DNA from: a virus
Taxonomy: Duplodnaviria; Heunggongvirae; Uroviricota; Caudoviricetes
IMG/VR virus record: IMGVR_UViG_2531839454_000020
DNA: 34,734 nt
Strand: one strand, 5' to 3'
In this document: piece by piece, positions 2,486 through 3,745 of the stretch
How the letters are laid out: each line of letters opens with the position of its first letter
Position numbering within the stretch: the stretch's first letter is position 1
Position numbers and translations under genes: made by a program
Notes under the pieces: model-generated
Told to the model about the DNA's origin: nothing
Database searches by the model: none
What the model saw: the letters and a program-made list of their open reading frames with translations, nothing else

Positions 2486-2842
2486 AAGTAGATTCCTCAA
2501 ATGTGGATTAATAAGGACAATAAAAAGAGCTTTTCGCCCTCGATACTTCTATTTATAAAAGTCATTTCAGAAAACCCTGCAAAACCACTGTATATCTGAT
2601 CAGCGGGAGCACGAATTGCTAAAGAGAAGATTAATAATTAATCAATTCGTACATTATTCAATCGAAAAAGCACTGTGTGTTTAACCAGTGCTGTGTGTGT
2701 TAACAGTGAATCAGGGGATTTTCAGAAGTGAACAATCATTTCATGCATGTATTTATACACGAAAAAATCTTGTTTATCATCAATATGGGGATTGTTTCGA
2801 AAATTTCAACCCCTACCAATGAGAAAAAGTATAAAATAATCA

Positions 2843-2856
2843 TTGACAGTTGTCAA
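2843..2856. promoter_or_regulatory. inverted repeat of TTGACA half-sites (TTGACA-GT-TGTCAA); candidate operator and/or minus-strand promoter -35
   Basis: Perfect inverted repeat; on the minus strand TTGACA (c2856..2851) is followed after 17 nt by TATACT (c2833..2828). Confidence 0.3.
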
Positions 2857-3051
2857 TGCACTTGACCTAAGCGAGAAATGACTATCAAAATTTTTGTGTG
2901 AAAATGGCGGATAACGATTATCAACCTTTATAACCTATTATAGCACGGCGACCTTTTGATAATTCTTTTTAAATCATGCATTTACAGCGATTTTTGGTGA
3001 TTTTCCGGTTAAATAATATACAAGAATTTTCTATCAAAATTTTTGATGAAA

Positions 3052-3169
3052 AACCTACACTACAAACCTACGCTTTAAAGGGATTGGCCTACACTAGTCA
3101 GTAAACCTACACTATAACACCCTCAAACCTACACTATGAAACCTACACACCTACACTAACCCTACACTT
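3052..3169 (+). repeat. array of 7 to 8 same-orientation CCTACAC(TA) direct repeats, irregular spacing
   Basis: CCTACAC at 3054, 3089, 3106, 3127, 3142, 3150, 3161 plus variant CCTACGC at 3066; most preceded by AAA. Confidence 0.7.
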
Positions 3170-3513
3170 CAATCTCATAAGTGTATGATCTTGAAAGACA
3201 TTTCACCCCACAGACCATAGAATATAAAATTCGAACTAACGTTCTCCTTTTTGCTCGTTTTCTCTCACTACGTTCAAGAAAGATCTCGCAAAAAGAATAC
3301 GGCGTAGCCGTGCGCGAAGCGCCCATCAACACCTTCTAAGACCTGCAAGCAGGATTCGAAAGGGATTGGATAGTTCGCTTCGCTCACGTTCACGCCTACG
3401 GCGTTCACTCGCTTTTGAAAGGATTTTCTTAGAAAGGGATTTAATACTAGTTACTAACTGATTCTAGTAAACGAACGAAGTGAGTAACAATCACTTTCTA
3501 GAAAGGTATTGGT

Positions 3514-3542
3514 ATCCCTTCGGGATTGCAACCTTCGGTTGC
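3514..3542 (+). other. two adjacent stable hairpins (atccc-ttc-gggat and gcaacc-ttc-ggttgc)
   Basis: Back-to-back stem-loops with UUC(G) loops, separated by 1 nt, in non-coding DNA. Confidence 0.5.
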
Positions 3543-3670
3543 TAAATTGCTTCCTGATTATAATTTCTCCAAAAGAAAGATTCTTATATTCTAAAGATAC
3601 TTCTTCGTTTTGATGATGATTTAATCAAATATATGAAGGAGGGCTTTAGCCCGACTGAATCCAATCACTT

Positions 3671-3724
3671 CCAAATAGATAAAAAATTCTCGTTATAAAT
3701 AATAGTGAACTTACTTGATTCACT
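3671..3724 (+). promoter_or_regulatory. conserved promoter-like element CCAAAT-N17-TATAAATA-ATAGTGAA plus inverted repeat (copy 1 of 2)
   Basis: CCAAAT 3671..3676, TATAAATA 3694..3701, AGTGAA 3704..3709 pairing with TTCACT 3719..3724; second copy at 30451..30515. Confidence 0.45.
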
Positions 3725-3745
3725 TTCTTTTAGAGGATTTCCACT

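Follow-up and report, generated by a model that had tools for sequence, protein, structure and literature searches.

Repeat arrays replaced together with an orphan protein in the probable early control region of an Escherichia coli prophage

What might a stretch of phage DNA do that encodes no credible protein and is crowded with repeats, palindromes and hairpins? This question is raised by positions 2486-3745 of a 34,734-nucleotide stretch of tailed-phage DNA (IMG/VR record IMGVR_UViG_2531839454_000020; the whole stretch is called the window here), which makes up the first 34.7 kb of NCBI contig AQCY01000078.1 and belongs to a prophage of Escherichia coli. An earlier interpretation made from the letters of the window (the sequence-only reading) had proposed a control region in this gap, holding divergent promoters and operators, a replication origin or a packaging site. 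Here we describe how the array of CCTACRC repeats in the middle of the gap is replaced, in related prophages, together with the matching version of A331, an orphan protein of 331 amino acids (aa) encoded to its left, and we weigh whether this pair is more probably a replication origin with its initiator or a set of immunity operators with their regulator. We also describe a short core that the gap has in common with intergenic DNA of RB49-like (Krischvirus) coliphages.

Arrays and proteins that change together

The claim that 2500-3745 is non-coding held as far as content is concerned and had to be corrected at its left edge: the gap starts at 2486, since the left-hand gene begins at ATG 2485 and not at TTG 2500. 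The only open reading frames (ORFs) inside it are 42-56 aa long, with GTG or TTG starts and odd composition; the RefSeq records of complete genomes show no annotated feature between the two flanking genes, and no small ORF was convincingly conserved as protein across 29 related loci. As proposed, the gap separates a block of minus-strand genes from plus-strand genes. The array that had been noticed in it comprises eight CCTACRC copies, on the plus strand only, within 114 nt (3054-3167), and the unit has a longer form, AACCTACACTA. Over both strands of the window CCTACRC occurs 17 times against 3.8 expected, a count reached by none of 100 shuffles. Start-to-start spacings in the array are 13, 21, 18, 22, 14, 8 and 11 nt. 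The AT-rich tract that abuts it holds the second copy of a 23-nt repeat (3023-3045) and the palindrome ATCAAAATTTTTGAT (3033-3047), and an operator-type site of the form AAAGGGATTGG lies between iterons 2 and 3 of the type-A array (3076-3087 in the window).

An identical gene layout was found in 16 and then in 26 IMG/VR loci, and in several complete genomes. From 3409 rightward these related loci are 88-92% identical to the window, and the 59-aa gene at the left edge of the gap is ~72% identical, whereas most of them have nothing in common with the window over 940-2190 and ~2560-3400. At the same position they carry one of four array types. Type A, that of the window, has 7-9 copies of CCTACRC and is accompanied by A331 in 12 of 12 loci; type B has 6-9 copies of TTGCCCCTGAA, accompanied in 15 of 15 loci by a relative of 313-323 aa that is 26-31% identical to A331. 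Types C (15 copies of TCCCCGYG) and D (5-6 copies of AAATCCCCAAGATTCCA) occur at one locus each, L010 and L054 respectively, each with its own A331 relative and a second paralog. Copy numbers differ by whole units, and spacings are mostly 11-14 or 21-23 nt. Type-B arrays open with 1-3 CCTACAC units and hold one type-D unit, AAAATCCCCTAGATTCCAC (L004:5134-5321; L038).

Array type and A331-family version match in all 29 loci, recombinants included. In two loci, L035 and L038, A331 and type-A iterons go with the other 59-aa allele; in L038 the left-hand non-coding DNA, too, is of the other type. More generally, 59-aa alleles reassort independently of array type. In the type-C and type-D loci, the left-hand non-coding DNA is that of the window as far as the palindrome ATCAAAATTTTTGAT, exactly where the array changes, and the proteins encoded 0.9 kb from the array are unrelated. 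The coupling is more than adjacency, since it persists where the ~0.9 kb that separates the A331-family gene from the array has been exchanged on its own. Two prophages of this family reside together in E. coli UTME-9 (NZ_CP157110.1), one of type A in ycdX and one of type B in hicB (L050 and L056). They are 96% identical from the equivalent of window position 3417 onward, have identical late genes and encode identical Rha, 77-aa, 201-aa and large terminase (TerL) proteins, are unrelated over 940-2188 (A331) and 2560-3416, and differ in their 59-aa and 149-aa alleles. Given this co-variation of array and protein, it is quite probable that A331-family proteins bind the arrays and that the arrays are their recognition sites. 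Most likely, such a protein-DNA recognition pair would set either where replication starts or which relatives are tolerated.

The sequence-only reading had named lack of conservation of the repeats in relatives as evidence against function. The array is indeed often not conserved, but another array takes its place and the matching protein changes with it, and this argues for function more strongly than plain conservation would. This bears on the notion that the gap is non-functional mosaic DNA, made of recombination scars and decayed genes between modules. The variety of the region would agree with it, with no fewer than two types of left-hand sequence, four of array and several forms of the core on the right, and with stray repeats of other types inside the arrays; the excess of CCTACRC, the perfect association of protein and array, a near-invariant block in the right half, and promoter, terminator and hairpin features that hold their position despite sequence replacement make it very unlikely.

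The same comparison speaks to packaging. TerL, a lambda gpA-type protein, implies a cos site somewhere, and repeated sites are typical of cosB and pac, so that the repeats might be sites for the small terminase (TerS). The TerS gene, however, lies 2.2 kb to the left of the gap and that of TerL 3 kb to its right, and neither TerS nor TerL, nor Rha or the 110-aa protein, co-varies with array type; in the type-A loci L001, L003 and L038, the TerS allele is that of type-B loci. Moreover, a 354-nt gap upstream of TerS bears repeats of its own, ATTGCGTAAT and ATTACGCAA, and by analogy with lambda this is a more likely place for cos than 2486-3745. In draft assemblies, the ends of contigs are scattered and mark no common position. 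We drop the proposed packaging site, to which we give almost no credence. The separation of TerS and a gpA-type TerL by a 6.4-kb early-gene block (window 1-275 and L050:17171-18076) is itself an unusual split for lambda-type packaging genes.

Replication start or immunity

From its N-terminus, A331 consists of a predicted beta-rich domain, a coiled coil and an acidic region, and it ends in ...YAYAA. In the family alignment the N-terminal ~170 residues are very divergent, and C-terminal motifs are weakly shared. Seven of eight family members end in ..AA or ..VA (YAA, RAA, FAA, KAA, LVA), which we take to be an ssrA-like ClpXP degron; the type-B protein ends in YCQ. Coiled-coil noise aside, A331 has no match in Pfam, PHROG, NCBIfam, PADLOC or PDB, and no NTPase or primase motif and no helix-turn-helix (HTH) or other repressor domain is detectable in it. 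A HMMER search returned only 6 matches among 1.84e9 representatives; close homologs are all labeled 'hypothetical protein' of E. coli or Shigella, and a second profile search gave the same near-identical E. coli proteins.

We favor a reading in which the array consists of origin iterons served by A331 as cognate initiator, inside a divergent-promoter control region, and put its probability at roughly 45%. It is suggested by repeats that are short, numerous and on the same strand, with whole-unit variation in copy number and the predominant spacings given above; by the AT-rich tract adjoining the array on one side, with an inverted repeat and hairpins on the other; by the variable head and conserved tail of A331, which parallel those of lambda O; by the putative degradation tag, which would suit a transient initiator; and by the lack of any other replication candidate in a phage that looks complete. 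The window encodes a lambda-B-type portal, a protease-capsid fusion, tail genes and lysis genes, and library and profile searches with the prophage proteins matched no known replication protein or CI-type repressor. On this account, the gap would be the early control and replication region of an uncharacterized temperate E. coli phage, and its middle module would consist of specific sites for A331, encoded 0.9 kb to the left. The type-specific N-terminal domain would oligomerize on the array and open the adjoining AT-rich DNA, the conserved C-terminal part would recruit host replication proteins, and the ..AA/..VA tail would keep the protein short-lived. The proposed replication origin is in this form plausible, as judged from sequence only.

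Several observations weigh against it. A331 has no detectable similarity to any initiator family (Rep, O, DnaD or helicase-primase), its predicted structure stays under usable confidence, with nothing except coiled-coil noise in a fold search, and no helicase, primase or loader gene was found in the prophage. DnaA boxes form no cluster; a single box with one mismatch lies in the gap (2502-2510), and their number in the window is that expected by chance. Such boxes are not obligatory in phage origins. Classical iteron origins have more regularly spaced repeats. The A331 gene lies at some distance from the array, and its place in a leftward operon behind an attenuator-like hairpin suits a lysogeny or immunity gene. 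Finally, heteroimmunity accounts no less well for the UTME-9 double lysogen, the pattern being also compatible with a difference in replication specificity.

Heteroimmunity is at the heart of a second explanation, which we regard as a serious if less favored possibility: the array would be an operator or enhancer cluster, A331 an immunity repressor or an activator of the flanking early promoters, and types A-D heteroimmunity groups. Eight to 15 direct repeats between the predicted promoters at 2856->2828 and 3202-3230 would be cooperatively coated, with the coiled coil used for oligomerization and a ClpXP-sensitive tail for induction, in the manner of the Mu c or P2 C repressor. The position of the array between predicted divergent promoters, with its last iteron ending 35 nt before a candidate -35 element, agrees with this, as do the coiled coil and ..AA/..VA C-termini of A331 and the location of its gene in an operon divergent from the lytic-direction genes. 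Four specificity types in otherwise near-identical phages are also typical of immunity regions, and the UTME-9 relatives, at different att sites, differ in exactly the array/A331 module. On the other hand, 8-15 sites in the same orientation are many for an operator, separate families of operator-like palindromes already exist for the promoters, and A331 has no detectable HTH or other repressor domain. A constitutive ssrA-like degron would poorly suit a maintenance repressor, and the phage would still be left with no candidate origin or initiator. Among the 59-aa, the 110-aa and the other neighbors of A331, no HTH repressor with an oligomerization or S24 domain was detected.

By analogy, the region would work like a lambdoid or P4/SaPI-type specificity module set inside an immunity-style divergent control region, with a layout that differs in that the array lies apart from the gene. 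It resembles lambda O/ori in its short-repeat array, its type-specific N-terminal and conserved C-terminal protein parts, the adjacent AT-rich tract and the existence of several specificity types, and O is an established unstable, ClpXP-sensitive initiator, a property inferred here from the ..AA/..VA ends. However, the iterons of lambda are inverted-repeat units of 19 bp and form part of the O gene itself, whereas the prophage array is non-coding, 0.9 kb from its gene and built of 7-11-bp cores in one orientation, A331 has no similarity to O, and there is no P-like loader gene. With P4 alpha/ori-crr and SaPI/PICI Rep-ori systems the proposed pair shares iterons that are very short (6-8 bp), irregularly spaced and placed in non-coding DNA next to AT-rich sequence, and an initiator and origin matched in type-specific fashion; those initiators, unlike A331, are primase/helicase proteins with recognizable domains, and their genes adjoin the origin.

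Iteron plasmids (pSC101, P1, F, R6K) are similar in having direct repeats at about one or two helical turns, whole-unit variation in copy number and a neighboring AT-rich tract, and RSF1010 oriV (ssiA/ssiB) in that its variable iterons precede a conserved inverted repeat whose hairpins lie on opposite strands; the prophage differs from them in lacking DnaA boxes and a Rep-family protein and in being integrated. Immunity regions (lambda/434/P22 imm; P2 C; Mu c) share divergent operons around a gap rich in (here predicted) promoters and operators, a module swapped as a unit and co-resident relatives that differ in it, and A331, like Mu c, would have a coiled coil and a protease-sensitive tail. 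The P2 C repressor binds direct repeats 22 bp apart. Here the differences are the lack of a recognizable repressor fold in A331, far more same-orientation sites than in known operators, and the presence of separate palindromic operators. By homology, A331 falls into none of the known initiator or repressor families.

Predicted control elements on either side of the array

That the gap holds divergent promoters and operators is suggested at the level of sequence, by a predicted leftward promoter in a palindrome, two rightward candidates and families of operator-like palindromes (Table 1). In a consensus scan, the best leftward site scored 11/12 and the rightward sites 9/12, with 9 promoter-like sites in total against 5.2 +/- 2.1 in shuffles, a modest excess.

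Table 1. Features of the gap and genes of the prophage, in window coordinates
Feature	Position	Strand	Remarks
TerS, Nu1-like	-276..275		phrog_57, weak Nu1 match; only 3' end inside window
94-aa protein	before 936	+	
80-aa coiled-coil protein	936-1178	-	
A331, orphan 331-aa protein	1194-2189	-	candidate iteron-binding specificity protein
59-aa protein	2306-2485	-	first gene of leftward operon; RefSeq coding sequence; start ATG 2485
Non-coding gap	2486-3745		
Terminator-like hairpin and T-run	2515-2541	-	just upstream of ribosome-binding site of 59-aa gene
GCACTG and 18-nt tandem duplication ending CAGTGC / CAGTG	2670-2708		can form alternative hairpins in leftward leader
Predicted leftward sigma-70-type promoter, TTGACA-17-TATACT	2856->2828	-	11/12 consensus; consensus scan
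23-nt repeat, first copy (AGAAATGACTATCAAAATTTTTG)	2874-2896	+	
AT-rich tract	2955-3050		96 bp, 22.9% GC (window 41.6%); candidate unwinding element; abuts array
Iteron array, 8 x (AA)CCTACRC(TA)	3052-3169	+	
Candidate distal rightward promoter (predicted), TTCACC-17-TAAAAT	3202-3230	+	35 nt past last iteron
Mini-hairpin ACGGC-GTA-GCCGT	3299-3311		
Imperfect 21-nt inverted repeat	3301-3321 / 3376-3396		made of mini-hairpins
Mini-hairpin GCGC-GAA-GCGC	3312-3322		
Mini-hairpin CCTGC-AA-GCAGG	3342-3353		
GAAAGG(G)ATT half-sites	3358, 3417, 3432, 3489(-), 3501		operator-like
Mini-hairpin GC-TTC-GC	3377-3383		
Mini-hairpin ACGCC-TAC-GGCGT	3392-3404		
CTAG-armed palindrome ACTAG-N13-CTAGT	3446-3468		
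Palindrome AATCACTTTCTAGAAAGGTATT	3489-3510		GAAAGGNATT family; formed by half-sites 3489(-) and 3501
Adjacent hairpins ATCCC-TTC-GGGAT and GCAACC-TTC-GGTTGC	3515-3543		one base apart
19-bp boxes TTGAT-N9-ATCAA	3554-3572, 3610-3628		degenerate and exact, respectively; 56 bp center to center
Hairpin GGGC-TTTA-GCCC	3641-3652		after AGGAGG; GGC-GAA-GCC in other loci
Candidate proximal rightward promoter, TAGATA-16-AATAAT	3676-3703	+	TAGACA in type-B loci
149-aa protein	3746-4195	+	first gene of rightward operon; no assigned function
110-aa protein	4316-4648	+	HTH-like by eye
Rha/Ant-like protein, 280 aa	4738-5580	+	
77-aa protein	5729-5962	-	
201-aa protein	5991-6596	-	divergent from TerL
TerL, lambda gpA type	6684-8591		library match
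Large serine recombinase	31588-33282	-	

On the left, a strong promoter set in a palindromic operator would drive a leader of ~300 nt that runs up to a terminator-like hairpin and then into the genes for the 59-aa, A331 and 80-aa proteins. The TTGACA palindrome of the sequence-only reading is CATTGACAGTTGTCAATG, an operator-like 18-bp element (2841-2858) that covers the -35 element of the predicted leftward promoter. The same promoter is predicted in L053, and the alternative left-hand type has TTGACA-17-TATAAT on the same strand. The hairpin and T-run at the equivalent of 2515-2541 are found in every type with a different stem sequence, which suggests a leftward leader with a candidate attenuator at its end. 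Within this leader, the near-palindrome noticed at 2671-2712 is a real repeat, more aptly an 18-nt tandem duplication (2673-2708) after GCACTG, the latter being complementary to both CAGTG(C) copies; stems are kept and loops vary at this place in L010, L035, L053 and L054. The repeated 22-mer proved to be a 23-nt repeat whose two copies are 87% identical. Further left, between the minus-strand A331 and 59-aa genes, lies an intrinsic terminator on the plus strand (2235-2274; 12-bp stem and TTTTTATTTTT), which could be a stop for rightward TerS transcripts or an intercistronic stabilizer of the leftward mRNA.

On the right, the module would consist of a leader full of hairpins and operators, within which the minus strand of the core is promoter-like, and the operon of the 149-aa, 110-aa and Rha proteins would have its proximal promoter here. 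At the place of the distal candidate promoter, L053 has TTGACC-17-TAAAAC. Six GC-rich mini-hairpins lie in 3290-3660 (16/kb against 1.07/kb window-wide), and no other 371-nt segment of the window has six. In types B and D the equivalent hairpins (GGGC-GTA-GCCC, GCCAC-TGC-GTGGC, GGGC-TTTA-GCCC, GCGC-TTTA-GCGC) keep their position with changed stems or loops. The two adjacent hairpins that had been noticed are present at 3515-3527 and 3529-3543; inspection showed each loop to be a TTC triloop, read as GAA from the opposite strand, and the idea that they are UUCG tetraloops was rejected. The proposed GAAAGG(G)ATT repeats are likewise there: 8 of 22 matches in the window with at most one mismatch, in both orientations, fall within 3076-3510, where this GAAAGGNATT family is concentrated, and three of the four exact matches fall in 3358-3510. 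At the proximal promoter, TCGTTATAAATA is kept in nearly all loci and is followed by a ATTCACTTTC site.

Two further observations concern this half of the gap. The tetranucleotide CTAG, which E. coli DNA generally avoids, is present three times in ~70 nt at 3446-3510 and about nine times in 250 nt in type-B loci (L004:5522-5740), forming palindromes such as ACTAGATGATTCTAGA that are probably another operator family; TrpR, Fur, FNR, Fis and IHF are improbable or doubtful as readers of the CTAG and TTGAT motifs, whose spacings do not match theirs. A short way before the 149-aa gene, TATAAATA (3694-3701) is conserved in nearly all loci; it is identical to the T4-type late promoter consensus, and the region has a cassette in common with the T4-like Krischvirus phages, but it may be only a sigma-70 -10 region.

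The hairpins invite the explanation that ~3235-3745 acts mainly as RNA, as a structured leader and/or an antisense RNA of ~290 nt running from the TAGAAT of the core to the hairpin at 3311->3299, which with its T-run is terminator-like on the minus strand. It would control the Rha/Ant-like operon by attenuation or by occlusion of a ribosome-binding site, in the manner of P1 c4 or P4 CI, and would fit either account of the iterons. The RNA fold of 3235-3750 is more stable than that of shuffles (z = -3.75), GC mini-hairpins cluster here with different stems at equivalent positions in other types, ~130 nt including the hairpins at 3515-3543 are near-invariant in ~24 of 29 loci where flanking coding DNA differs by 8-15%, and a Rha/Ant-like gene lies downstream. 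In addition, 3562-3579, which contains UCUCC, is complementary to the ribosome-binding region of the 149-aa gene (3723-3740; 15 Watson-Crick pairs and one G-U of 18) and could occlude it in a long leader transcript. Against this, local folds of the invariant block alone do not reach significance (z = -1.96 and -1.37), its sequence varies too little for covariation to be judged, all the promoters are predicted only, and the orientation of the core relative to neighboring genes is reversed in L053 and in Krischvirus phages. Rfam gave no match at the gathering threshold for the window or the Krischvirus locus, with noise only at E <= 10, C4-type families included. We consider a mainly RNA-based role unlikely.

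A core common to Krischvirus phages, and the wider lineage

Within the right half, ~85 nt (3554-3637) are 76-84% identical to unannotated intergenic DNA in 58 records of RB49-like (Krischvirus) coliphages, where the copy lies between gene 24 and hoc and is present twice in tandem in JK32, JSE, L051 and L052. The common denominator is the pair of TTGAT-N9-ATCAA boxes after triloop mini-hairpins, also in L038, L044 and L054, whose core has diverged further and keeps only the two boxes. On the Krischvirus gene strand, the order is box-AACGAAGA-N8-TAGAAT and then a GC hairpin with a T-rich tail, and the same order is found on the minus strand of the window, where TAGAAT is the reverse complement of 3588-3593 and is promoter-like. 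In L053:3735-3870 (E. coli FDAARGOS_1267) the core is inverted with respect to the window, and a perfect TATAAT faces the 149-aa gene. A standard sigma-70 promoter finds no support in the core, whichever strand is read: it has a -10-like TAGAAT or TATAAT and no -35 element that scores. No protein common to the prophage and the Krischvirus phages was found that might bind it, the flanking proteins being unrelated.

From its sequence, the core has the look of a movable cassette of promoter type and recalls the PeSL cassettes of RB49 and phi1. PeSLs are defined by consensus sigma-70 promoters and by G/C-tract stem-loops that terminate transcription (PMC2839356, PMC4122927). The core resembles those of RB49-like phages in its small GC hairpins, its location at a mosaic boundary and its occurrence in either orientation; it differs in that it has only a -10-like element and no good -35, and in that its hairpins are triloop mini-hairpins.

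A broader view, speculative and in our judgment doubtful, would make the A331 family unrecognized phage replication initiators or master specificity factors, with a fast-evolving, beta-rich DNA-reading head, a coiled coil, a ClpXP tag and swappable iteron cassettes located away from the gene, and the shared core a portable promoter or priming cassette. The unit of two boxes, a -10-like element and GNA-triloop mini-hairpins would then be read by a host factor, and the cassette would be exchanged between temperate and virulent (Krischvirus) coliphages.

The prophage itself measures ~36-37 kb, with 40% GC, far under that of its host. Its assignment to E. coli and to an insertion in ycdX follows from the flanking genes in complete genomes: csgDEFG/BAC, ycdY and ycdZ on one side, and ghrA with a truncated ycdX on the other. 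The large serine recombinase would be the agent of this insertion. Relatives occur in ~58-60 of 5426 complete E. coli genomes, all 61 occurrences being chromosomal. In the GenBank phage collection there was no isolated phage with DNA-level likeness, the closest large terminase being 43% identical; no plasmid relatives of the gap region were found, and no literature report on the contig accession or on a ycdX prophage.

The rightward operon runs from the 149-aa gene through those of the HTH-like 110-aa and Rha/Ant-like proteins, and the leftward operon from the 59-aa gene through A331 to the 80-aa gene. The 59-aa protein has the look of a small Hin-like HTH protein, as judged by eye. Its motif ..G(F/T)YY.(L/M)KKY(G/E)I.. 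recurs in two or three copies in the 201-aa protein, a repetition that suggests a multi-HTH DNA-binding protein. Neither the 149-aa nor the 201-aa protein had a homolog in PDB or among phages, and the 149-aa protein had no relative in a collection of one genome per species. A 128-aa protein near the right prophage end (34063-34449, minus strand) is indexed in 1460 blocks of a public assembly collection, far more than the 149-aa protein, and is therefore shared with other, commoner elements. In the major capsid protein (10729-12729; 666 aa) an N-terminal part that resembles a prohead protease is fused to the rest (PHROG 'major head and protease protein'). The window was found to have neither tRNA nor tmRNA genes.

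In kind, such a system is already known; new are the A331 family, the set of four matched types and the core that Krischvirus phages have in common with the prophage, which offers a solid and testable lead and not a categorically new mechanism. The analysis defines the control region of a widespread, unstudied lineage of E. coli prophages, present in ~1% of complete genomes, including those of pathogenic O55:H7, enterotoxigenic (ETEC) and Shiga toxin-producing (STEC) strains. With the core, there is a tangible example of an exchange of non-coding DNA that links temperate and virulent phages of one host. The four matched types of protein and repeat, with their recombinants, amount to a natural experiment that would assign a DNA target to an orphan protein that neither homology nor structure could annotate. 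If the array is an origin and A331 its initiator, the family would be a new one of initiators with compact, orthogonal modules of replication specificity; if the pair serves immunity, it would explain how close relatives reside together in one cell.

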